From: Candidatus Faecenecus gallistercoris
Lineage (GTDB): Bacteria > Bacillota_I > Bacilli_A > RF39 > UBA660
Direction: 5' to 3'
Length of the DNA stretch: 41,842 nucleotides
NCBI GenBank assembly: GCA_018713065.1
Contig: DVFU01000023.1
Span: forward strand, 1 to 41,842
Shown piece by piece: positions 6,633-35,490 of this stretch; position 1 is the stretch's first letter; every line of letters begins with the position of its first letter. The notes below the pieces were generated by a model. That model was not told the origin of the DNA. It searched no databases and was given only the letters and a program-made list of their open reading frames with translations. Position numbers and translations under genes: made by a program.

Positions 6633-7292
6633 CTATTTTTCTTTGTCCAAGATTTGTTTTGCTTGTTCAAAAGTATAGACCTTATCTTTACCAGCATCGA
6701 TGCGATATAATAAGTTTCGCTTCTGATAAAAATCGATCAATGGACTTGTCTTTTCTAAATAAGTATCATAGCGTACTTGGAATGATTTAGAATTGTCATC
6801 GTCTCTTTGATAAAGAGTTCCACCACAACGATCACAGATACCATCCTTTTTCGGTTTTGATTCTGCTACATTTACGTTGTAAATTGCACCACATTTGCTG
6901 CATAGACGGCGACCTGTAATTCTAGATTCTAATACAGTTTTATCTACATCAAGTAGAAAAACATACCCAAGTGATAAATGTAACTTATCTAAAATTTCAT
7001 CATACTTTTTAGCCTGTTCCACATTTCGTGGAAAACCATCTAGTATAAATCCATTTTGGCAATCGGGTTCAGCCAAGCGACGCATCAATAAGTCATATAC
7101 GATTTCGTCGCTAACTAACTTCCCACTAGCTAAAATGTCTTTGATTTTTTTACCAAGCTCATCTTCTAAAGTTGCTGCTTCTCGTAAGAGATCCCCAGTT
7201 GAAATATGAGCAAGGTGATATTCCTTTTGTAATAATTCTGAAAGGGTTCCTTTGCCGGCAGCAGGTGCTGCCAATAGAATAATATTCATCAT
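6633..7292 (-). CDS. adk: Adenylate kinase (zinc-lid type)
   Basis: P-loop AAPAAGKGT and a Cys4 lid (CSKCG...CDRCGG). It overlaps the secY stop by 4 nt. Confidence 0.95.
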   Translation of the reverse strand: MMNIILLAAPAAGKGTLSELLQKEYHLAHISTGDLLREAATLEDELGKKIKDILASGKLVSDEIVYDLLMRRLAEPDCQNGFILDGFPRNVEQAKKYDEILDKLHLSLGYVFLLDVDKTVLESRITGRRLCSKCGAIYNVNVAESKPKKDGICDRCGGTLYQRDDDNSKSFQVRYDTYLEKTSPLIDFYQKRNLLYRIDAGKDKVYTFEQAKQILDKEK

Positions 7293-8572
7293 CTTCTACT
7301 GTATCCTCTTGAATAGTTTCTAGTAACTAAGCTTCCTTCTAGTTGCTTGTAAGTTTCCAAACAAACACCTACAACGATCAATAATCCAGTACCCCCAACG
7401 GTCACACTAGATGATAAAGATACATTTGGTGCTAAATTGATTAGTGCACTGAACACGATTGGTAAAATCGCAATGATAGTCAAGAATGTACTACCGACAA
7501 CTGTAAGTCTAGATAATACTTTGCTGACATATTTCTCTGTATCTTTACCAGGACGAATTCCTGGAATATAGCCTCCATTATTCTGTAAATTTTTGGCCAT
7601 CTCATCTGGTTTGATTTGAATGAATGTGTATACGTAACCAAATAGGAATATCAATACTACGTAAATAATAAATCCAACTGGCGTCGTATAATTCAAATAA
7701 TTATTTACAAAATTCGTAAAACTTGTATTGTTAATAAATTGTGCAATTGTTGCCGGAATTGCTAATAAACTAGAAGCAAAGATAACCGGTACAACCCCTG
7801 CAGAGTTAATTTTAATTGGCATAAATGACTGCTCAGCACCGTATGCACTTGATGATTTGTTCGCATATTGAATTGGAATCTTTCGATTGGCTTCTTCTAC
7901 AAAAATAACACCAATGATAATTATAAAATATACGATAACAAATGCGATAAATAACAAAATACCGATAATATTATTTAAAGAATTGTTCAAAACTAACCCT
8001 TGAAATGCTTCTGCAAACATCGTTGGCAATGTTTCAACAATACCTGCCATAATAATCAAACTAATTCCGTTTCCTAATCCTTTTTGCGTAATTTGATCGC
8101 CCAACCACAACGTAAATGCAGTACCAGCCGTCAAAATTGTTGCAACATATAAGTGTTCAAGAACTGGAACATGGGTACCTAAAAATGCAAATGAGAAAGC
8201 GAAACCTTCAATAAATGCAAATATGATACCAACATATCTTGTTATCTGATTAATTTTTTGTCTTCCAACCGGACCCTCTTTTGCAAGTTCACTAAAGTAT
8301 GGAATAATATCCATCTGTAATAATTGCATAATAATTTGAGCAGTAATATATGGCATGACACCTAAAGCAAAAATTGAAAATTGTCTTAAAGCGCCACCGC
8401 CCATAGCATTGATTAATTCTAGAAAACCTAAGTTTCCTGTAAGGTCGGTAGTACCAGGAACTCTAACTTTTGTTCCTATGACAAAGACCATTAATGCACC
8501 AAGCGTGAAAAGAATACGTTTGCGTAAGTCTTTGTTCGTCGGTGCAAATAATTGTTTCAATGCATGAAACAT
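7289..8572 (-). CDS. secY: Preprotein translocase subunit SecY
   Basis: 427 aa polytopic membrane protein in the rplO-secY-adk position. Confidence 0.96.
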   Translation of the reverse strand: MFHALKQLFAPTNKDLRKRILFTLGALMVFVIGTKVRVPGTTDLTGNLGFLELINAMGGGALRQFSIFALGVMPYITAQIIMQLLQMDIIPYFSELAKEGPVGRQKINQITRYVGIIFAFIEGFAFSFAFLGTHVPVLEHLYVATILTAGTAFTLWLGDQITQKGLGNGISLIIMAGIVETLPTMFAEAFQGLVLNNSLNNIIGILLFIAFVIVYFIIIIGVIFVEEANRKIPIQYANKSSSAYGAEQSFMPIKINSAGVVPVIFASSLLAIPATIAQFINNTSFTNFVNNYLNYTTPVGFIIYVVLIFLFGYVYTFIQIKPDEMAKNLQNNGGYIPGIRPGKDTEKYVSKVLSRLTVVGSTFLTIIAILPIVFSALINLAPNVSLSSSVTVGGTGLLIVVGVCLETYKQLEGSLVTRNYSRGYSRR

Positions 8573-8573
8573 A

Positions 8574-9017
8574 TTAGATCACCTCAGCTTTGCTACCTGA
8601 CTTTTCTATTTTTTCTAATGCGCTAGCAGTAAATTTATTAGCTTGGATTGTTAACTTTTTACCAAGATTACCATTTCCTAATACCTTAATTCCTGCTAAT
8701 TGATTTTTAACTAATCCTGTTTCTTTTAATAGTGCAGGAGTCACTACTGTTCCGTCTTCAAAACGGTTCAAATCTTCAACATTTACAACTGCATAAACGA
8801 TTTTAAATTTAGCGTTACTAAAACCTCTCTTTGGTAAGCGTCTGTATAAAGGTAATTGTCCACCTTCAAATACTGGATTGATGCTTCCACCACTACGTGC
8901 TTTTTGTCCTTTGTATCCTCTACCACTTGTTTTTCCTAGACCACTACCAACACCGCGTCCAACACGACGTCTTTCTTGTCTAGATCCTTCTGGTGTTCTT
9001 AATTCATTTAACTTCAT
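8574..9017 (-). CDS. rplO: 50S ribosomal protein L15
   Basis: Gly/Arg-rich N-terminus ([24 protein letters not shown]). It directly abuts rpsE, so no rpmD lies between them. Confidence 0.96.
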
Positions 9018-16396: not shown

Positions 16397-17110
16397 TTAA
16401 GCCTCTTGTGATGATTCTGTTTCTGCTTCTTTGTTTTCAGGTTCTACATTGTAAACAACTAAATCGATTGGAGTTGCTTTTGTATTTCCCTTTTTAACAG
16501 CAGTTTTAATGATTACGAAAGACTTCTTTGGTCCTGGAACATTACCTTTAATTAAGATAACGTTGTTTTCCATATCGACAGCAACAACCTCTTCATTTTG
16601 AACAGTTCTTGTTGCAGAACCCATATGACCTGGTAATTTTTTACCTTTAATAACGTGCATTGGTAACATAGTACCTAGAGAACCAACACCTCTATGATAT
16701 TGAGATCCATGACCCATCGGGCCTCTCGTTTGATTCCAGCGTTTGATAACGCCTTGGAATCCTTTACCTTTGCTGACGCCTTGTACGTCAACGATATCGC
16801 CTGCTGCAAATGTATCAGCAGCAATTACTTGTCCTAATGTATATTCACTAGGATCTACCCCTCTGATTTCTTTTAAGAAGCGCTTAGGTTCTGTATTAGC
16901 TTTTTTAACATGACCTATAGCAGCCTTATTGCTATTCTTTTCTTTCATTGTGAATGCGCCAAGTTGCACAGCATCATAACCATCTTTTTCTTTTGTTTTG
17001 ATTTGCGTTACAACGTTTGGTTCAATCTCAACAACAGTAACTGGAACTAGTTTGCCATCTTTAGCAAAAACTTGAGTCATTCCAATTTTTCTACCTAAGA
17101 TTCCTTTCAT
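16397..17110 (-). CDS. rplC: 50S ribosomal protein L3 (with acidic C-terminal extension)
   Basis: [15 protein letters not shown]... Confidence 0.96.
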
Positions 17111-17126
17111 ATTATTTTCCTCCTAA

Positions 17127-17435
17127 TTATAATTTGATTTCAATATCAACACCGCTTGGTAAATCTAGATGAGTTAATGCATCAATTGTTTCCTTGCTTG
17201 GATTTTTGATATCAATAAGTCTCTTGTGTGTACGCATTTCGAATTGTTCACGTGAATCCTTATATTTATGAACAGCTCTTAAAATCGTAAACTTTTCAAC
17301 TTCAGTAGGAAGTGGTACAGGTCCACTGATTTCTCCTCCTGATCTCTTAACAGTTTCAACAATTTTTGTAGCGGCATTATCTAGAATTCTGTGATCGTAT
17401 GCTTTCAAACGAATACGAACTTTTTCCTTTGACAT
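17127..17435 (-). CDS. rpsJ: 30S ribosomal protein S10
   Basis: [19 protein letters not shown]...; first gene of the S10 operon. Confidence 0.97.
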
Positions 17436-17557
17436 TTTAAATCCTCCCTTCGCCTATATCTAGTATAGACTTGCTCCGTGTGAATAACCCGATACTTTCC
17501 AGCAACTTATCCTGGTGTATCGACAACCTCCCACATCTAAGCAGCCACACGACCATA
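17436..17557 (-). promoter_or_regulatory. Structured 5' leader of the S10 operon (about 115 nt), a candidate ribosomal-protein autoregulatory leader
   Basis: Nested stems on the minus strand. The outer pair is GTGTG (17546-17550) with CACAC (17478-17482). The inner hairpin is CGATAC-a-CCAG...CTGG-aaa-GTATCG (17490-17522). A second GGGAGG copy occurs in the leader in addition to the true RBS. Confidence 0.45.
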
Positions 17558-17586
17558 ATTATAGCATAGCAACATCAAAAAAACAA
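17558..17586 (-). promoter_or_regulatory. Sigma-A-type promoter of the S10/spc/alpha ribosomal superoperon
   Basis: On the minus strand: -35 TTGTTT, 17-nt spacer, then extended -10 TGCTATAAT (the ATTATA complement is at 17558-17563). Confidence 0.65.
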
Positions 17587-17623
17587 GCGTTTTTTTAGGT
17601 TTTCTAAAAATATTTACGCTTGT
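17577..17623 (-). terminator. Terminator of the five-gene accessory operon (composite hairpin plus T-run)
   Basis: On the minus strand: ACAAGCGT-aaata-TTTTTAG-aaaac-CTAAAAA-ACGCTTGT followed by 7 T. The T-run overlaps the -35 of the S10 promoter. Confidence 0.5.
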
Positions 17624-17636
17624 ATTCGACAAAATA

Positions 17637-19214
17637 TTAACTTAAATCAAATTTTTTCGGATTGGAAACTGTCTCTTTTGTAAGTTTCAGAACTTTGTAA
17701 GTGCCAGCTGGTTCTAGTGCCATTTCATGTTCGGCAGAAGTTAAGCTCGCCATTACGATATTATTTAAATCGCGCATACTTTGATCAGACTCATCTAATT
17801 TTGCAAGTAAAGCATCAAAGTATGACATATCCGGTTTCGTTTCCACTTGAAATTGACGTTCGTATCTAGCCTTCTTCTTTTGGAATACAGATGAACGGGA
17901 ATGTTGTAAAATATCCAGTTTCGTTTCATGATCCAATACGTTATAAACAACTAAATGTGGAAAACGACTCACTAACTCTTTGTTAAACGCAGTTTCTTTG
18001 CTAAGCCTAGATGCATCAAATTGAACAGGACCATTCACTGCTCCAAAACCGATTTTTTTATCGGCATTAAACAAATTAGAAAATGTTCCAGAAAAGATGC
18101 GATGCAAAGAATTAGTCGGAAACATCCGGACCTGATTGGACAATGCAGTTTTTCTAAAATAAAACGGATCTCCTTCGATAAAGTTCATAATGACATTCAT
18201 AATAGCAGAAACGTAATCACGACACTGTTCGCCTATTTTATCGAACTCATCGATGTAGACGATACCACGAGATGCCATACTTAAATCAGAGTCACATTGC
18301 GACAAAAGAGAAAAAAATCCATCTTCCAAACTAGTTCCTTTGATACCGGGAGGGACAAAAGTAGAACCTTTGAGTTCAACCATCGGCAAATTCAGATATT
18401 CCATCGCAGCGCGAACCGTCTGAGTCTTTCCCGTACCAGTCGGGCCCACCAATAAAATGGATTCCGTTTTCTCATCCGGCAATGCTGTATAATTCATATA
18501 AATGGTAGTCGCAAGCTGACTAATTTCGTCATCGTGACCAAACACTCGCTCTTTCATGTAAGTCTCTAATCCTCGTAACGAGATATCAGGATTAACAGCA
18601 GGCGTTTGATTGGAAATAATTGTTTCTGGAGCGATGTTCTTATCTAAGTAAAGTCCTTTTAATGTATCCCCTTCAATAGCGATACCAACAACACCCAAAG
18701 AACCAAAAACTTCTGTCTTTTTCACACCATCCGATAATGCTAGTAAACGGCAACGAACACGATTCACATCAGGCTCTGATAACAACTGACTTAGCGATTC
18801 ACTATTTAACGTAACAGTTGGCGAATCTTGATCTAGTCGATAAACTGTTTCCTCTTTTACTTTGGAAAGTGCATGTAAATCGACTTTGCGTTCCACTACT
18901 TTTCCATCTTGAACAGTCACATATAAAATATACTGCCGTTCGGTTTCCCAAAAGAACTGTAACAGAAAGTTCTGATCATCTTTATTATTCGAATGATAAA
19001 TTTCCTGTAAATGGGAAAGAGAAAAGATGTTATCAACTAAATAATTTTCCTCTTCCAATGCCTTTTCAAATGACGGCTTATGATAGATGGTATCCGAACA
19101 AAAGTCATCGTTAACGCAGTATCCTTGTACAATATCAACTGGATACAAGATGTACTCTTTTTCTCCTAAAGGAAGTTTTCCATACCGAATTCCATATTCC
19201 ATTTCCTGTTCCAT
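17637..19214 (-). CDS. ClpX-derived AAA+ ATPase with a novel N-terminal domain. It has no zinc-binding domain, the pore-1 loop reads GIKG, and the IGF tripeptide is retained.
   Basis: The C-terminal ~270 aa align by eye to E. coli ClpX. Shared elements are Walker A LLVGPTGTGKT, Walker B RGIVYIDEFDK, the IGF loop KKIGFGA (codons 18045-18053) and the sensor region ELVSRFPHLVV. GYVG is replaced by GIKG (18336-18347). The ORF-track start at 19301 is a TTG. ATG 19214 (MEQEMEYG) has a GGGGGA RBS 7 nt upstream. Confidence 0.8.
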   Translation of the reverse strand: MEQEMEYGIRYGKLPLGEKEYILYPVDIVQGYCVNDDFCSDTIYHKPSFEKALEEENYLVDNIFSLSHLQEIYHSNNKDDQNFLLQFFWETERQYILYVTVQDGKVVERKVDLHALSKVKEETVYRLDQDSPTVTLNSESLSQLLSEPDVNRVRCRLLALSDGVKKTEVFGSLGVVGIAIEGDTLKGLYLDKNIAPETIISNQTPAVNPDISLRGLETYMKERVFGHDDEISQLATTIYMNYTALPDEKTESILLVGPTGTGKTQTVRAAMEYLNLPMVELKGSTFVPPGIKGTSLEDGFFSLLSQCDSDLSMASRGIVYIDEFDKIGEQCRDYVSAIMNVIMNFIEGDPFYFRKTALSNQVRMFPTNSLHRIFSGTFSNLFNADKKIGFGAVNGPVQFDASRLSKETAFNKELVSRFPHLVVYNVLDHETKLDILQHSRSSVFQKKKARYERQFQVETKPDMSYFDALLAKLDESDQSMRDLNNIVMASLTSAEHEMALEPAGTYKVLKLTKETVSNPKKFDLS

Positions 19215-19301
19215 ACCAAAATCCCCCAACAATTCACGATTTAATATCCTTGTGAACCTTATTATAAAATAGGATCCCAAATTAGTCAAAAAAAACTGCA
19301 A

Positions 19302-20225
19302 TTACTTATAATTACAGTTCGCATTGAATACTTCGATCATTTGCATCGCTTCCTGATACAAAGAACGAATTTGATTTAATTTCATCTTCTTGAAAAACAC
19401 CGTCTTCTCATATTCCTGTTCCAACTTAATCATTCGAATTAAAATCGCAATAAAACGCTTGTAACTTCCTTTCTTACCGATAATCTGATCAAACCAAGAA
19501 TCCATATCGTCGATATTACCAGAAAAGCGTAGAGATGAAAACGTTGCTAAAAACGTTCGGTTTTTCATTAATTCTTTACACAAATAAGATTGTAATCCGT
19601 AAGCATTCGATGTATAACTGCCCGAAATGCTAGAATCGATTGCATATAATGTCGCTGCAATCGTATTGGATAACGGAATCGTTCGAAAAGAATGAATAAT
19701 ATCGATGATTTCTTCTGTCTGTTTGGTATTGATAATCTCTTCCAAAATGTAATCGTCATCCTTGCGAATAACTTGCATTGTCTTCTTATTATAATGAATA
19801 TGACAAATTCCCGTCCGCAATGTGAACGTGTCCCCTTGATCCATAATTTCATTTTCAAACGAATTGACCGCATGGTTATATTCGTGAACTAAGTTATCTA
19901 ATAAGGACATCAATGGAATATTTTGGTAATTTTGTAATACGATTACTTTATCCGTTACAATATGACCATCTTGTAATCTGGGCATACTCGTATAAAAAGC
20001 CTGTTCTCGTTCGTTGTGTTCGTCCCGAATCAAGATCGGCACACTCTCGAAAATTCGCAAAATTTTATGTTCCGCAGATAATCCATATTTTAAAATAAAA
20101 GCAGGGATAATCAAATGAAGTAGATGCCCAATATTTTCTGGATACCGAAACTTCGTATTTAAATTATCTATCGATACTTTCGTCTTCCGAAACAAATCTT
20201 GTACAATAGCAACATTATTTTCCAT
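19302..20225 (-). CDS. Hypothetical protein with a single HExxH zincin-like motif (putative metallopeptidase, family not recognised)
   Basis: NLVHEYNHA motif (codons 19872-19886). ATG 20225 is preceded by a GGGAG RBS and overlaps the polymerase gene 3' end by 11 nt. The ORF-track start at 20234 is a GTG. Confidence 0.6.
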   Translation of the reverse strand: MENNVAIVQDLFRKTKVSIDNLNTKFRYPENIGHLLHLIIPAFILKYGLSAEHKILRIFESVPILIRDEHNEREQAFYTSMPRLQDGHIVTDKVIVLQNYQNIPLMSLLDNLVHEYNHAVNSFENEIMDQGDTFTLRTGICHIHYNKKTMQVIRKDDDYILEEIINTKQTEEIIDIIHSFRTIPLSNTIAATLYAIDSSISGSYTSNAYGLQSYLCKELMKNRTFLATFSSLRFSGNIDDMDSWFDQIIGKKGSYKRFIAILIRMIKLEQEYEKTVFFKKMKLNQIRSLYQEAMQMIEVFNANCNYK

Positions 20226-21429
20226 CACGGTCACTCCCTTCTTCTTTCAAACTAGCAGGCATAATGATATCTTTACCGAACTTACTACGAATCTGATCGA
20301 CAGCTTCCTGCACTTTAGAGGAACCATCATCGACAGTATCGGTATCAAAAAGAGAAATCTGGGTCATATTCGTTTTGACAAAGTTACCCAACCGAATACC
20401 AATCAAACGAATCGGTTCACCTTTCCAAGCCCGTTCAAACAAAGCGTATGCCTTTTTAAAAATGTCTTCACTGACATTGGTAGGATTTTCCAATTTGCAC
20501 TGGTGTGAATAATTGACGAATGCATCCGTTCGAATGATGATTGCAATACTAGTCGCATATAGTTTCTTTTCACGCGCTTCTAATCCAACCTCATCGGCTT
20601 GAGATAAAAGCATTTTACGAATATATGATTTATCGGTCACATCAAATGGCAACGTAGCAGTCGTAGAAATGCTTTTCCGCTCCGCCCGTTCGGAAGTCAC
20701 CGGTGTATCATCGATACCCAGAGAGGCATTGTGCATGTAAATAGCATTGCTTTTAAAGTACTTTGTGAGTAACGAAACATCTGTTTTTGCTAACTCCCCA
20801 ATCGTGTGTATTCCAAGTGCCTTCAATGTTTCAGCACTTCGTTTTCCGATGAACAAAAGATCTCCAACATCCAAAGGCCACATCTTCTCTTCCACCTCAG
20901 AAGCAAACAATGTATGAACCTTATTCGGTTTTTCGAAATCACTAGCCATTTTAGCACAAAGTCGATTATTCGCAATTCCAACGTTCACCGTAATTCCAAA
21001 CTTCTCATGAATCTCATCTTTCATCTGATAAGCAAGCCGAATCAAGTCATCATATAAATAGTGTGTCCCAGTCATATCTAAAAAACACTCATCAACCGAA
21101 AATCGTTCGACCGTCGGTGTAAACTGTAAATAATATTGATACAACTTATCACTTTCTCGTTTGTATAATTCGTGATTGGCTGGAAAAACTTTCAAACCTG
21201 GACATTTTCTTCTCGCTTGATACAAAGTTTCTGCTGTTTTTACACCATACTTTTTAGCAACTGGACTTTTCGCTACGACAATACCACGTCTAGCATCTTC
21301 ATCGCCACCTATGACAGAAGGAATATTTCGAATATCTTCCGTCGCTCCACGGCGCAACATATCGACAGCAGTCCATGATAAAAAAGCATTGTTAACATCG
21401 ATATGAAATATGATTCGTTCTTCCTTCAT
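20215..21429 (-). CDS. dinB: Y-family DNA polymerase (Pol IV / UmuC-like translesion polymerase)
   Basis: N-terminal IFHIDVNNAFLSW (a UmuC-like DxN variant of the DMDAFFAS motif), catalytic SVDECFLDMT, and the little-finger region. 404 aa. Confidence 0.85.
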   Translation of the reverse strand: MKEERIIFHIDVNNAFLSWTAVDMLRRGATEDIRNIPSVIGGDEDARRGIVVAKSPVAKKYGVKTAETLYQARRKCPGLKVFPANHELYKRESDKLYQYYLQFTPTVERFSVDECFLDMTGTHYLYDDLIRLAYQMKDEIHEKFGITVNVGIANNRLCAKMASDFEKPNKVHTLFASEVEEKMWPLDVGDLLFIGKRSAETLKALGIHTIGELAKTDVSLLTKYFKSNAIYMHNASLGIDDTPVTSERAERKSISTTATLPFDVTDKSYIRKMLLSQADEVGLEAREKKLYATSIAIIIRTDAFVNYSHQCKLENPTNVSEDIFKKAYALFERAWKGEPIRLIGIRLGNFVKTNMTQISLFDTDTVDDGSSKVQEAVDQIRSKFGKDIIMPASLKEEGSDRDGK

Positions 21430-21521
21430 AACACACCTCTTCTAAACAAGCTTCTATAAGTTCTACTATAAGTATAGAAAATTCTGATGAATTTGAAAAT
21501 CGAACAAAAGAATTTTTTTCA

Positions 21522-22271
21522 TTATTTTGAACTCAAGAACATCCGGTATCCTTTTTTAATCGCATCGTCGATATTTTCTTTAGGAAACAATGTCTGTAAT
21601 TCAAACATAACCAAAGAGTGTTTATGATCATAACAAAAAGACTCAGCCGCATAATGCATACCCGGAATATCGTAAAAAAGGCCTTTGATTGCAGCACGAT
21701 TTAAAATAGGATCGATGACCATCTCACTGTACTCCCAAATCGTTCCAGGATACAAAAATGTAGAAGGTTTGCTAAAGCGATGTAACAAACGCCACTTCTG
21801 AAAATATAAAAAGTGTGTCAGTTCGTGAATCAAATTAGAGAACACCTCTCCCATCGAGCTGCTACATAGATAGATAGAAGAAGTCTCAGAAATCCCAAAA
21901 TGAGCAGGTAAAATTCCAACATAAACAGAAATTACCTTCATGGACTCCGGCCAATCACAACCGAGTACCTGCGATAAAAACGACAAAAAAGACTTGCTAG
22001 AAACATCGAAATATTGCTGATAGTCAATTAACAATCGGTCCATATCGAACGATTCTTCCTGATAAGAACGAATGACTTCCTCCTCGATTTCTTTGATAAT
22101 TCCATCTTCGGTCATATTGCTACGAATAATTTCTCTTAAAGCCGGAAACGTTCGAATCATCGCATCCCGTCGATTGATAAAATCATCTTCTCGTTCATTT
22201 TGATAAAACTGAATCACATAATTCACATTTTCTTCTACCGACAATTTATGAAAAACAATTTTAGGAACCAT
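21522..22271 (-). CDS. Hypothetical protein with an HExxH zincin-like motif (second putative metallopeptidase)
   Basis: NLIHELTHFLYFQKWRLLH (HExxH codons 21813-21827). I moved the start to ATG 22271 (MVPKIVF), which is preceded by a GGAGG RBS. Confidence 0.6.
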   Translation of the reverse strand: MVPKIVFHKLSVEENVNYVIQFYQNEREDDFINRRDAMIRTFPALREIIRSNMTEDGIIKEIEEEVIRSYQEESFDMDRLLIDYQQYFDVSSKSFLSFLSQVLGCDWPESMKVISVYVGILPAHFGISETSSIYLCSSSMGEVFSNLIHELTHFLYFQKWRLLHRFSKPSTFLYPGTIWEYSEMVIDPILNRAAIKGLFYDIPGMHYAAESFCYDHKHSLVMFELQTLFPKENIDDAIKKGYRMFLSSK

Positions 22272-22322
22272 AACTACCTCCAAAGACAAATAAAATATCC
22301 ACAAGAGAAGTGGATATCTTTT

Positions 22323-23597
22323 TTATAAGTATTCTTTAAAACAGAAAGTTGCATAAATCGGAATGTATTTAATTCCCTTTTTGAGAGAGAAATTCTCTTC
22401 ACTAACTCGAATTGCCTCATGAATATCGTATTTATTCATAAACAAAGTAAGTGATTTTGCTTTCGACAAATTCGTATTGACTAACTCGATTGGAACAATC
22501 TTACCAAGTCTAGACTGAACGATGAAACTAACTTCAGCCTTTCCTTCTGATGCATAATAATAAAGGTTATAGCCAGAAGAAACGATATTGTTAGCAATAC
22601 TAGTCTCATATAAAATATTCTTTAATTTGTCATCCTGTAACAATTTAATTTGATTTAAATGCAACTGATAGAATAAAATTCCCGTATCATTCGGATACAA
22701 TTTGAAGGAATCTTTATCTTTAAACTTCGATAATGGCATTCCCACATTCGATACTTTATAACAACGATAGACAAAATTGTTGTTACTTAAGAAATCGATA
22801 GCCGCCTCGTAATCTTTACTTCTACTTCCTTCCCTCATCAATCCATATTGAAATTTATGATTCGGTTTTAAGAATTGATACGGCATGATATCCAATACTT
22901 CATTTGCTCGCGTCGTATCGATCAAAGTAGGCATGAACAGCAATGATCTTTTATAACAATCGATCATCTTCTGATGAACAGAATTCAAATAAGCAAAATT
23001 AGGATTGTGGAAGGATGCTTCAATTGCTTCTGGAAGACCACCAGTCATGAGATAATTTTGAAAGTGATCCATAGCAATTTGATGGAACGGAATCGGTTTA
23101 TTATTTTTATATGAATCTTTGATAAAGTCGATTAATTGATTTTGATTACAAGCTTTTAAATACTCTTCAAAGTCAACTGGGAACATATACTTATACTGTA
23201 ACTCTTCCCCTTTAAATTTAACTAAGTTCTCCTTTAAAGATGTAATCATAATGACGTGATAATCGCATTCTCCTTTGCCAAACAACTTGACCATCTTGAC
23301 GATATCTAAGTCATTGATATTGTCGAATACAATCAACGTATCTTTCTTTAAAATCGGTTCTCCTACCAAAAGAGCAAGGCGAAGAACAATTTTTTCAACC
23401 GAATTCTCTCGTTTTGCAATCGATAACAATTCATAATTATTTTCACAATTGATATAGGCGACAGTCTTGTATTCCTTCTCGCCAAAAGCAAGCACCGAAT
23501 ACGTTTTTCCAATCTGTCTGTTTCCATATAAAAGTAACGGTTTCCGATTTATATCTTTTTTCCATCGTAGGAAATCATTCATAATTTTTCGTTCCAT
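22323..23597 (-). CDS. AAA_14/DUF4143-type ATPase (COG1373-like predicted AAA+ ATPase with C-terminal nuclease-like domain)
   Basis: P-loop LLLYGNRQIGKTY, Walker B-like TLIVFDNIND, and the characteristic FKLYPNDTGIL motif of the DUF4143 region. 424 aa with a GGAGG RBS. Confidence 0.75.
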   Translation of the reverse strand: MERKIMNDFLRWKKDINRKPLLLYGNRQIGKTYSVLAFGEKEYKTVAYINCENNYELLSIAKRENSVEKIVLRLALLVGEPILKKDTLIVFDNINDLDIVKMVKLFGKGECDYHVIMITSLKENLVKFKGEELQYKYMFPVDFEEYLKACNQNQLIDFIKDSYKNNKPIPFHQIAMDHFQNYLMTGGLPEAIEASFHNPNFAYLNSVHQKMIDCYKRSLLFMPTLIDTTRANEVLDIMPYQFLKPNHKFQYGLMREGSRSKDYEAAIDFLSNNNFVYRCYKVSNVGMPLSKFKDKDSFKLYPNDTGILFYQLHLNQIKLLQDDKLKNILYETSIANNIVSSGYNLYYYASEGKAEVSFIVQSRLGKIVPIELVNTNLSKAKSLTLFMNKYDIHEAIRVSEENFSLKKGIKYIPIYATFCFKEYL

Positions 23598-23631
23598 AAA
23601 TCGTGCCCTCCTTACACTAAACTACAAGTTA

Positions 23632-23660
23632 AGTATATATCTTTCCTATTTTTAAGTCAA
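23632..23660 (-). promoter_or_regulatory. Sigma-A-type promoter upstream of the five-gene accessory operon
   Basis: On the minus strand: -35 TTGACT, 17-nt spacer, -10 TATACT. It lies in the 106-nt spo0A-ATPase spacer, which has no convincing terminator. Confidence 0.5.
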
Positions 23661-23703
23661 GAATGTGTCGGGTTTTTATGAGAATTATTCTCAAAAAGAA
23701 AAC

Positions 23704-24480
23704 TTACGCATGAGTAAGTTCTTTGTGATACTCTAGTCGAAGTTTATCTGCGACAGTTACTATGAATTCAGAATTCGTCGGTTTGGCCTTATCGATATCG
23801 ACACTATGACCGAATATCTCTTCCATCAAATCCCAACTGCCACGATTCCAACTGACCTCGATAGCATGGCGAATCGCCCGTTCTACACGAGATACTGTGG
23901 TATCGAACTTTTCTGCTAACATCGGATATAACTCTTTGGTAATGCCACCAATCACCGATGGATCTTTATAAATAATAGAAATCCCTTCTCTAATATACTG
24001 ATATCCCTTTATATGAGAGGGAACTCCTAATTCATGTAAAATTTTCGTAATCGAAATATCTAAGTTATTTTGATATAAATCGATACTCTTTTGATTGAAT
24101 GTATTGTTTGCCGTACATTCTAAAACTCTTCTTGCCAGTTCATCTAACTCGAACGGTTTTAAGATGAAATAGTGAATCCCTAATTCTGAGACCTTTCGAA
24201 TCATCTCTTGGGTATTGTAAGACGTAAGTACAATGACTTTCTTATGAATTCCCTTTTTCTGCATTTCTTCTAAGACGGATACACCATCCTTCTTAGGCAT
24301 AATCAAATCCAAAATAATGACATCGTAACGATCCATCTCGGACTCGATTAAATGCAATCCTTCTACTCCATCGTACGCTTCAAGCACTACATCAATCTTA
24401 GCGTGACTTCTAAAATACTCCTTGACCATACGAACAAGTGCAACGTTGTCGTCGATCATTAAGACTCTAGCCTTTTCCAT
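23704..24480 (-). CDS. spo0A: Sporulation master response regulator Spo0A
   Basis: Receiver domain (MIDDN..., [12 protein letters not shown]) plus a Spo0A-specific C-terminal DNA-binding domain ([12 protein letters not shown]..., [18 protein letters not shown]). Confidence 0.93.
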
Positions 24481-24560
24481 ATTTTATCCTTTCTTACTAC
24501 ACGCAAGTATAATTATAAACTAAATTTCTACATAAATAAACAGTTATTTTTATCTAAATT

Positions 24561-24567
24561 TGTCGAA
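24561..24567 (+). promoter_or_regulatory. Consensus 0A box (TGTCGAA) upstream of spo0A
   Basis: Exact match to the B. subtilis TGNCGAA 0A-box consensus, 81-87 nt upstream of the spo0A start. It is a short motif, so a chance match is possible. Confidence 0.4.
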
Positions 24568-24582
24568 CCCAGATTTTTAGGC

Positions 24583-24611
24583 AAAAAAAACTACACGACA
24601 ATCTCGTGTAG
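24583..24611 (-). terminator. Rho-independent terminator ending the glycolytic operon
   Basis: On the minus strand: CTACACGAG-attg-TCGTGTAG followed by 8 T. Confidence 0.8.
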
Positions 24612-24628
24612 AATTGTGCATTCATTAC

Positions 24629-24805
24629 TTATCCATTCTTGTTTAAAGAATTCATGCCTGCTACGAAAAGAAGCAAAAGTCCTAAAAACAAACAAGCCCA
24701 GAAAATAGGAGAATCCTGATTATCTATGATGAAGTTGTGTAAGTCTTCTCCAAGATCTTGAATCGTTTTCATCAAATCGAAGTCTAATACAAACCAAGGC
24801 AACAT
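24629..24805 (-). CDS. Small hypothetical single-pass membrane protein (58 aa, below the ORF-track cut-off)
   Basis: Manual translation gives MLPWFVLDFDLMKTIQDLGEDLHNFIIDNQDSPIFWACLFLGLLLLFVAGMNSLNKNG. Its ATG directly abuts the tpiA stop codon and the terminator follows it. It is not SecG-like by eye. Confidence 0.5.
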   Translation of the reverse strand: MLPWFVLDFDLMKTIQDLGEDLHNFIIDNQDSPIFWACLFLGLLLLFVAGMNSLNKNG

Positions 24806-25525
24806 TTAACGTACCTCCTTTAACATTTCTTCTATCTTTTTAGGGTCTAAACTAGCACCACCTATTAAATATCCATCGATATTAGGAACTACTTCCAAAG
24901 AAGCAATATTAGAAGGATTGACACTTCCACCATATAAAACTGGTAAATCGACATGATAATGAGTAGAAACAAACTCTTTGATATTGGATACTGTCTCTTC
25001 AATATCTTCATTGCTTGCGACCTTACCTGTACCAATCGCCCAAACTGGTTCATAAGCAAGTATGATAGATTGTAAGTTACTGGTATCAAATGAAGAGAAT
25101 ACATCTTCAATCTGAGATGATAAAACATCGTTCGTTTTTCCTTGTTCTCTTTCCGTTTCTGTTTCACCAATACAGAAAATCGGGCGGATATTTGTTTGCA
25201 GTAACAACTCTATCTTCTGAATGAAATCAGCATCGGTCTCTTTCATAATTTGACGTCTTTCCGAATGCGCGACGATCGTATACGTAACACCCAAAGAAGA
25301 AAGTTGCAAAGCAGATACTTCACCCGTCAATGCTCCGTATGCTCGAAAAGCAACATTTTGACTTCCTACTCCATAAGAGGCATCTTTAAATAATGGCAAA
25401 TACGGAAAACTCGGAACGACAACAAAATGAACGTTAGAAATATCCAATTTCTGAATCTGTTCTTTATACGTTAATATTTCTGGATACGACAAATTCATTT
25501 TGTGATTTAAAACAAAATATTTCAT
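24806..25525 (-). CDS. tpiA: Triose-phosphate isomerase
   Basis: Catalytic residues in LNHKMN, AHSERR and AYEPVWAIGTG. Confidence 0.94.
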   Translation of the reverse strand: MKYFVLNHKMNLSYPEILTYKEQIQKLDISNVHFVVVPSFPYLPLFKDASYGVGSQNVAFRAYGALTGEVSALQLSSLGVTYTIVAHSERRQIMKETDADFIQKIELLLQTNIRPIFCIGETETEREQGKTNDVLSSQIEDVFSSFDTSNLQSIILAYEPVWAIGTGKVASNEDIEETVSNIKEFVSTHYHVDLPVLYGGSVNPSNIASLEVVPNIDGYLIGGASLDPKKIEEMLKEVR

Positions 25526-34914: not shown

Positions 34915-35490
34915 ATGAATCTAGTACCAATCGTAGTAGAAAACGAACAAAATGGAGAACGTTCTTACGACTTGTATTCGAAGTTACTAGCAAGTCGCAT
35001 CGTATTTATTAACGGCGAAATTAACGACTCTGTTGCCAGTACAGTAATTGCAGAACTACTGTATTTAGATTCCTTATCAAACGATGATATCAGTATTTAC
35101 ATCAATTCCCCAGGTGGAATGGTTACGGCCGGATTTGCCATATACGACACGATGAATTTTATCAAAAGTGATGTTTCAACCATCGGCATGGGACTTTGTG
35201 CCAGTATGGCTGCATTCTTACTTTCATCCGGCCAAAAAGGAAAACGTTACTTACTTCCCAATGCTGAAGTCATGATTCATCAACCACTTGGAGGTGCCCA
35301 AGGACAAGCCACAGAAATTAAAATCGCATCAGATCATATTTTAGAAACGAAAACAAAATTAAATAAGATTTTAGCCAAAAACACCGGTCAAAAACTGACT
35401 AAAATTATGAAAGATACCGAACGAGACCATTATTTAGACGCAAAAAAAGCCAAAGAATATGGCTTAGTGGATCACATCATTCACTCTTAG
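34915..35490 (+). CDS. clpP: ATP-dependent Clp protease proteolytic subunit ClpP
   Basis: Ser-His-Asp triad contexts [14 protein letters not shown] and RDHYLDA. An AGGTGA RBS precedes it. It is the only plus-strand gene in the window. Confidence 0.95.

Follow-up and report, generated by a model that had tools for sequence, protein, structure and literature searches.

A Y-family DNA polymerase gene paired with a candidate metallopeptidase gene on an inherited chromosomal backbone of uncultured gut Bacilli

We analyzed a 41,842-nt stretch of DNA from Candidatus Faecenecus gallistercoris (contig DVFU01000023.1 of assembly GCA_018713065.1, hereafter the window), in which five genes lie between spo0A and rpsJ of the S10 operon. 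In the order of transcription they are g1 (an ATPase), g2 (an HExxH protein), dinB (a Y-family DNA polymerase), g4 (a second HExxH protein) and g5 (a ClpX-like ATPase). A preliminary description made from the sequence alone had read them as one mirror-symmetric operon. Our results indicate that the locus is very probably a composite and not a five-gene module. The region is a vertically inherited backbone of an uncultured gut Bacilli lineage with the order tpi-spo0A-g1-[GpmI or g2]-dinB-g4-[g5]-S10 operon, where GpmI is the 2,3-bisphosphoglycerate-independent phosphoglycerate mutase. The five genes are a lineage-specific juxtaposition on this backbone, neither cargo nor module, and dinB-g4 is the one evolutionarily conserved unit of the region. 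The explanation that we prefer as a whole, with a probability of about 0.55, is an inherited backbone carrying a conserved dinB-g4 pair, with g4 acting in damage tolerance and g5 standing apart.

The g4 loci were retrieved from GTDB species representatives with a g4 profile, and all 80 of them came from metagenome-assembled genomes (MAGs) of uncultured gut Bacilli. The slot directly upstream of g4 was occupied by a Y-family polymerase gene in 45 of the 80 species loci. DinB directly preceded g4 in 33 loci, to which one locus with a 625-aa insertion can be added (34 in total). In a separate clade (11/80), a UmuC-like polymerase of ~490 aa (IMS plus IMS_C) and a YolD-like partner lay directly upstream of g4. 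The gap between g4 and the polymerase or YolD gene ranged from -14 to +171 nt and was mostly below 60 nt, as measured from first-ATG calls of the open reading frames (ORFs). The surroundings of the pair were variable on both sides. Of 28 loci informative on the gene upstream of DinB, 9 had GpmI there and the others had one of at least 10 different genes, and g4 was followed by MurJ-FemAB, rpsJ, a giant protein of ~2,560 aa or others, with MurJ within two genes downstream in 21 of the 33 DinB-g4 loci. The DinB-g4 junction was broken only in L075, which had lost DinB, and in L087, which carried an insertion.

It is the occupation of the same upstream slot by two different polymerase types that most strongly favors a functional link between polymerase and g4. 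The preliminary description had asked whether homologues of the 307-aa g4 product are linked to Y-family polymerases in other genomes, and this linkage proved to be recurrent. We are fairly confident that dinB-g4 is a selected gene pair. The two genes are probably co-transcribed and, in the window, translationally coupled.

The dinB product showed the Pfam domains IMS (PF00817, E = 5.7e-38), IMS_HHH (PF11798, 1e-5) and IMS_C (PF11799, 9.7e-27). NCBIfam matches to polymerase (Pol) IV reached 1e-91, below the equivalog cut-offs (306 bits versus 381 for PRK03103, and 297 versus 399 for PRK01810), and by these scores the window dinB is placed in a divergent Pol IV subgroup. Inspecting the translation by eye, we take HIDVNNAF and SVDECF to contain the catalytic D and DE, respectively, and the C-terminal QISLF to be a clamp-binding-like motif.

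No Pfam or NCBIfam family matched g4. Its own family comprises 600 homologues, among which H114, E115, H118, E126 and E162/E163 were invariant, and its AlphaFold2 (AF2) model, with a predicted local distance difference test score (pLDDT) of 89.5, showed a compact soluble fold. The most likely identity of g4 is that of a metallopeptidase expressed together with translesion polymerases. As a zinc metallopeptidase co-transcribed with the polymerase, it would act in the same damage-tolerance pathway. Before bypass, it could remove or process a protein that forms an obstacle at the lesion; alternatively, it could control the turnover or processing of the polymerase or a partner. Our leading functional reading, held tentatively, is that g4 is a metallopeptidase of the polymerase's pathway; that it acts in one of these two specific ways is doubtful. 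Still less probable is the wider proposal that the g4 family is an unrecognized metalloprotease that partners translesion polymerases and, in certain lineages, also a dedicated ClpX-like unfoldase with a novel N-terminal domain. It would then clear or process proteins where replication is blocked, as a bacterial functional analogue of the SPRTN, p97 and translesion polymerase system built from unrelated folds.

Several observations weigh against a role of g4 in damage tolerance. In 35 of the 80 species, g4 was present with no adjacent polymerase. A neighbor-joining analysis of g4 grouped the loci linked to DinB or UmuC into a few large clades, and because of this shared ancestry the independent events are far fewer than 45. 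Almost all genes in these genomes are co-directional, which weakens the inference of an operon. A search for LexA/Cheo boxes (GAAC-N4-GTTC, at most one mismatch) gave 14 matches versus 15.7 expected, and none lay upstream of dinB. The g4 family had a median isoelectric point (pI) of 6.45 and is thus not basic, unlike DNA-dependent proteases. Furthermore, g4 showed no significant profile or fold likeness to SprT, Wss1, IrrE or any solved protease. A Foldseek search against the PDB and BFVD gave no match at E ≤ 1e-3, with viral SprT-like proteins among the weak matches (E = 0.06 to 0.4), a sequence-profile search of the PDB with the g4 family gave only chance-level matches, and Pfam scans of 32 g4 relatives yielded nothing recurrent and no SprT-like match. 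As the small cores of zincins are alike, no evidential weight was given to the SprT-like names among the weak Foldseek matches. Finally, peptidoglycan or division genes were located from three genes upstream to four genes downstream of g4 in 45 of the 80 loci, in five arrangements.

The cell-wall neighbors raise the alternative that g4 serves the cell envelope or cell division, for instance as a cytoplasmic metallopeptidase whose substrate is a peptidoglycan precursor or a division protein, and that its adjacency to the polymerase is inherited gene order without functional significance. MurJ-FemAB lay downstream of g4 in about 22 loci and MurL-MurD in about 15. In four loci g4 was found inside the division and cell wall (dcw) cluster, between PBP-MraY (PBP, penicillin-binding protein) and FtsW, and in three loci it followed FtsE-FtsX-PcsB/M23. 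MurD alone was near g4 in L042, and SigG-YlmC lay upstream of g4 in three further loci (L030 to L032); in Bacillus subtilis, the SigG-YlmC pair sits at the end of the dcw region. Cell-wall contexts were also present at g4 loci without a polymerase. However, no signal peptide or membrane segment was visible in the g4 sequence, its model is soluble, and the window itself has no cell-wall gene adjacent to g4. An additional gene, in one or the other orientation, often separated g4 from MurJ, but DinB and g4 were not separated in this way. In addition, two Y-family polymerase types in the same slot upstream of g4 are hard to explain by chance synteny. We consider an envelope role unlikely, though it is the main alternative. 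As a separate observation, the MurL-type epimerase downstream of g4 was paired with a MurD-like ligase (L037, 10913 to 14728; L007, 8934 to 11619; about 15 others), a pairing which suggests that these Bacilli obtain the D-Glu of their peptidoglycan stem peptide by the MurD2/MurL route. In one clade, the giant ORF (~2,550 to 2,564 aa) lay one or two genes downstream of g4 (L048, L049, L056, L075 and L088), and a similar ORF of 2,342 aa, cut by the end of the locus, was found four genes downstream of g4 in L051.

On the preferred explanation, g5 would be a separate ClpX-like unfoldase with its own promoter-like site and terminator. The preliminary description had allowed a start at TTG 19301, which would leave a 0-nt junction with g4. 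The g5 homologues begin where ATG 19214 lies, and this ATG is therefore the right start. A Pfam AAA match (2.9e-11) was obtained, with the likeness to ClpX restricted to residues 245 to 359 of the 554-aa ORF. ClpX models scored 62 to 66 bits versus cut-offs of about 360 (65.7 versus 359), below equivalog level. Like ClpX, with which its ATPase module aligns, g5 retains Walker A and B, the arginine residues and an IGF-type loop (KIGFGA, aligned with SIGF/VIGF of ClpX). Unlike ClpX, it has no C4 zinc-binding N-terminal domain (PF06689); this domain was absent in g5 and all 88 full-length relatives, and present in the true ClpX proteins listed lower in the search. Instead, g5 carries an N-terminal domain of ~235 aa that matches no Pfam family and is common only to its paralogous family. 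We refer to g5 and its orthologues as type A, and to a paralogous ClpX-like ATPase found near g4 elsewhere as type B. The N-terminal domains of the two types are homologous (hhalign probability 91.8%, E = 7.5e-7), so the types are paralogues of one family, and in one lineage or another either type is found behind g4. The pore-1 loop is GIKG in g5 and most type A proteins, as opposed to GYVG in type B and ClpX.

Because the IGF loop is retained, g5 probably docks on ClpP, a homologue of which is encoded elsewhere in the window. This homologue was 58% identical to B. subtilis ClpP. A ClpP search over ~2.2 Mb of loci matched the window copy alone, the loci being small genome pieces that are uninformative on other genomes. 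Two further observations concern the ClpX-like family. P0064 encodes a 420-aa protein that shares 48% identity with the g5 ATPase part (60% of the query). Where g5 has its N-terminal domain, this protein has an S1 RNA-binding domain (PF00575), which suggests swapping of the N-terminal domain in this family. L054 (6997 to 10373) carries two tandem type B copies downstream of g4-MurL-MurD.

An alternative built on these ATPases holds that g4 and the ClpX-like ATPase (g5 or type B) form a split AAA+ metalloprotease or an adaptor/substrate pair, with the polymerase as bystander or substrate. It is consistent with the position of g5 behind g4 in the window lineage, with the location of type B zero to four genes downstream of g4 in 21 of the 80 loci (directly in 8 and after MurL-MurD in 13), and with the homologous N-terminal domains, ATPase motifs and IGF/VGF loop that both types keep. 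However, 58 of the 80 loci had no such ATPase near g4. Type A orthologues of five other lineages were found in unrelated housekeeping contexts: those at 30 to 43% identity lay beside frr, between efp and ftsK, or before a cation ATPase and a transketolase, and neither g4 nor a polymerase occurred within 6 to 10 kb of them. One MAG scaffold has both paralogues, with the type A copy about 20 kb from g4. Furthermore, the IGF loop and the ClpP gene of the window favor ClpP, not g4, as the peptidase partner, and g5 has its own promoter-like site. We regard a split protease as improbable. The preliminary description had also asked about linkage of the 525-aa g5 product. Recurrent linkage to g4 was seen for the paralogue with the same N-terminal domain; in most relatives the g5 orthologues themselves lie elsewhere.

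The backbone could be followed through relatives at different distances. Two contigs of the same species, L011 and L093 (the latter being OLPF01000119.1), carried all five genes between spo0A and rpsJ. A relative with g2 at 47% identity (L009) showed the order tpi-spo0A-g1-g2-dinB-g4-rpsJ, with g5 absent, and one with g5 at 66% identity (L005) showed the order dinB-g4-g5-S10. Among the 80 g4 loci, 11 had both spo0A and g1 on the contig. All of them had the order tpi-spo0A-g1, followed by GpmI-dinB-g4 in nine (L027, L047, L048, L051, L056, L062, L066, L079 and L085, with GpmI at about 7100 to 8700 in each). The GpmI slot of these relatives is occupied by g2 in the window lineage, and gpmI was not found anywhere in the 41.8-kb window. 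The position of GpmI between g1 and dinB in the relatives places spo0A and g1 inside what appears to be a split gap-pgk-tpi-gpmI glycolytic cluster. In L005 (2 to 890), the closest non-identical relative, the dinB frame stops early (after GGFCKD) and resumes in another frame, owing either to a frameshift in a pseudogene or to an error in the assembly.

This conservation also assigns g1 to the backbone. Its product matched Pfam AAA_14 (E = 3e-12) and DUF4143 (E = 2e-22), and like other AAA_14/DUF4143 ATPases (COG1373-type; PDC-S01) it has both domains over its full length. We know of no experimentally shown function for ATPases of this type. The gene adjoined spo0A in all 11 GTDB loci with both on the contig and in L009, L011 and L093 as well; here g1 is a stable chromosomal neighbor of spo0A across species and not part of a variable island. 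Its grouping with g2 in the preliminary description is not borne out, as g1 is syntenic with spo0A and the next gene in the relatives is GpmI, not g2.

The second HExxH protein, g2, showed no match to Pfam or NCBIfam. Its family comprised 194 members at E ≤ 1e-3 and was larger than a word-based search had indicated. H149, E150, H153 and E183 were at least 90% conserved among its homologues, so that the HExxH motifs on which the preliminary description relied are conserved in both families, in g4 without exception. The family pattern is HExxHF..F.KW...W.LSEMVxDPILN, with the SEMVxD helix 30 residues past HExxH. In this respect the g2 family resembles the gluzincins (thermolysin-like, HExxH plus ExxxD), and M1 aminopeptidases and LTA4H were among its weak fold matches; no peptidase family matched significantly. 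The AF2 model (pLDDT 94.9) included a 49-residue helix (residues 55 to 103) in the N-terminal half, for which no counterpart was found. Foldseek against the PDB gave no match at E ≤ 1e-3, the weak ones including ArdC (0.71) and Wss1 (3.4), and the sequence-profile search of the PDB with the g2 family gave only chance-level matches. A SprT-like Pfam match was obtained for 7 of 36 g2 relatives (best E = 0.012); in the two inspected, it had E = 0.14 and 0.22 and spanned 20 to 45 residues around HExxH. ImmA/IrrE (PF06114) matched one g2 relative (E = 0.12). The median pI of the family was 5.11.

An identity of g2 or g4 as SprT/WLM or ImmA/IrrE proteins was not adopted, since there is no significant profile or fold match, both families are non-basic and dinB has no LexA box. 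Neither g2 nor g4 matched PF06114 (ImmA/IrrE, Peptidase_M78), and no adjacent helix-turn-helix gene was present. The SPRTN-type likeness drawn in the preliminary description thus found no significant counterpart for either HExxH protein among SprT, Wss1 or solved structures.

The same description had grouped g2 with the polymerase, and here the neighborhoods spoke clearly against it. As the full alignment had no sufficiently conserved block, 79 metagenomic loci of the g2 family were retrieved with a 13-sequence subset. A polymerase, g1, g4 or g5 was nearby in none of the 79. Clustering of the neighbors revealed no dominant partner, the largest cluster covering 11 of 78 loci; one contig (P0247) was too short for gene context. 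A protein of ~360 aa with an N-terminal CxxC motif was encoded 3' of g2-family genes in 10 of the 78 loci (e.g., L101, 8764 to 9846), and from the look of its sequence it presumably resembles the family-4 uracil-DNA-glycosylase type.

The layout of the window is summarized in Table 1. The five minus-strand ORFs and their gene labels were upheld by ORF calls and by Pfam and NCBIfam domains, and the junctions recomputed from ORF coordinates agreed with the lengths given earlier (51 nt for g1-g2, 92 nt for g2-dinB, an 11-nt overlap of dinB and g4, and 87 nt for g4-g5). The outer promoter candidate and terminator of the supposed single operon are both present. However, its unity did not stand: there is an internal hairpin after g1, promoter-like sites precede dinB and g5, and the co-occurrence of the genes is confined to one narrow lineage. 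Of the 33 window ORFs with a length of 150 aa or more, 32 are on the minus strand, and the co-direction of the five genes therefore carries no information. The region most likely holds up to four transcription units, namely g1, g2, dinB-g4 and g5.

Table 1. Genes and predicted signals of the region between spo0A and rpsJ, with the ClpP gene of the window
Feature	Position (nt)	Strand	Description
spo0A	23704-24480		Gene bordering the five-gene set
Promoter-like site TTGACT-17-TATACT	23632-23660	-	Between spo0A and g1; 10/12, consensus match only
g1	22323-23597	-	AAA_14 + DUF4143 ATPase, 424 aa
Terminator-like hairpin	22292-22320	-	Overlaps g1 stop codon; U-rich tail; -15.3 kcal/mol, z = -2.8
g2	21522-22271	-	HExxH...ExxxD protein, unnamed family, 249 aa counted from ATG
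Weak promoter-like site	21471-21499	-	g2-dinB gap; 9/12 match
dinB	20215-21429	-	Y-family DNA polymerase IV, 404 aa
g4	19302-20225	-	HExxH protein, unnamed family, 307 aa
Promoter-like site TTGACT-17-TATAAT	19261-19289	-	g4-g5 gap; 11/12, top sigma-70-like match within 8 kb
g5	17637-19214	-	ClpX-like AAA+ ATPase, 525 aa; whole ORF 554 aa
Predicted intrinsic terminator	17577-17623	-	3' of g5; -16.3 kcal/mol, z = -3.9, then U7
rpsJ	17127-17435		Gene bordering the five-gene set
ClpP homologue gene	34915-35490	+	Sole plus-strand ORF of 150 aa or more in the window

The functional palindrome of the preliminary description proved to be nominal, since neither the ATPase pair nor the HExxH pair is related. 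Homology of g1 and g5 was ruled out (best BLASTP E = 0.31), as was that of g2 and g4, whose family profiles align over just 19 columns around HExxH (hhalign probability 4%). The mirror-symmetric five-gene arrangement is no system and should not be propagated as such.

That all five genes could form one DNA-damage-tolerance module, by analogy with SPRTN, p97 and translesion polymerases, is very improbable. The gene contents fit the labels of such a module, SprT-like names occur among the weak Pfam matches of g2 relatives, and the weak Foldseek lists given above contain ArdC and Wss1 for g2 and viral SprT-like proteins for g4. These Pfam matches, however, cover only the HExxH helix, with E > 0.1 in the members inspected, and the fold matches all fall short of 1e-3. 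The g2 motif is HExxH...ExxxD, of the gluzincin type, versus HExxH...H in SprT/WLM proteins. In addition, hairpin and promoter-like elements lie inside the gene set, and the joint occurrence of the five genes was not seen beyond one narrow lineage, so that the neighborhood census contradicts this proposal of the preliminary description.

Its other proposal, an ATPase-plus-protease anti-phage defense island that captured a polymerase, is hardly credible: g1 matched the PADLOC candidate PDC-S01 (residues 1 to 422, E = 3e-109) and g5 weakly matched the PDC-M37B, DolB and IetA ATPase models near Walker A, but the ATPase family of g1 is very widespread and PDC-S01 has only candidate status, the g5 matches are generic AAA+ similarity, PADLOC gave no match for g2, dinB or g4, and the position is stable and syntenic over many species without mobility genes or a composition shift. 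Apart from the PDC-S01 match of g1, nothing points to defense. The preliminary description was right that the set lies between the conserved flanks spo0A and rpsJ and that integrase and transposase genes are lacking, as none was found among the window ORFs. Its reading as accessory cargo does not hold, the order being syntenic in many relatives. The GC content of the gene set (0.32 to 0.39) matches the flanks, and signs of a mobile or defense island were likewise missing with regard to gene order, integrases and repeats (no dedicated repeat search was made).

Small proteins such as UmuD, YolD and ImuA/B act together with bacterial translesion polymerases and gate mutagenic synthesis, and replication-coupled proteolysis in bacteria is poorly understood. 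The polymerase-g4 pairing looks like an undescribed variant of the theme of a translesion polymerase plus an accessory gene. As in umuDC (Pol V), yqjW-yqjX/uvrX-yolD, imuA-imuB-dnaE2 and E. coli dinB-yafNOP, a polymerase gene and a small gene of another kind are tightly linked, and in the UmuC-linked clade it is the canonical pair of UmuC-like polymerase and YolD that directly precedes g4. However, g4 is a cytoplasmic HExxH protein of ~305 aa that shows no similarity to UmuD (an S24 peptidase), YolD, ImuA/ImuB-C, SRAP or YafNOP; it is encoded downstream of the polymerase, and no LexA box was found near the window dinB. With SPRTN, Wss1 and SprT-like proteases, the locus has in common that a gene with a link to translesion synthesis encodes an HExxH zinc-peptidase motif; g2 and g4 differ from them in being non-basic, in a third-ligand spacing that is not HExxH...H, and in having no detected DNA-binding domain. 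If true, a conserved partner that carries a zinc-protease motif and is encoded behind polymerases of the DinB as well as the UmuC type would be of a new kind, and g4 would be a concrete candidate for replication-coupled proteolysis in bacteria, with the caveat that cell-wall genes flank g4 equally often. With an invariant HExxH, a confident model and no detectable solved relative, g4 also lends itself to structural and enzymatic study. Surveys of Y-family polymerases list YolD, ImuB-C, SRAP-like and other small subunits and no HExxH partner (PMC6511836, PMC12926913). The 2026 survey of these two used species with complete genomes and would therefore not include these MAG-only lineages.

The GC skew was negative over the whole window (1 to 41842), and the window seems to be part of a single replichore in a genome whose genes are very strongly co-oriented. 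An Rfam scan of 17000 to 25000, the rpsJ leader included, gave no family at threshold. Between the g5 terminator and rpsJ there is an untranslated leader of ~140 nt (17436 to 17576, minus strand), which holds a TATAAT-containing promoter-like stretch.

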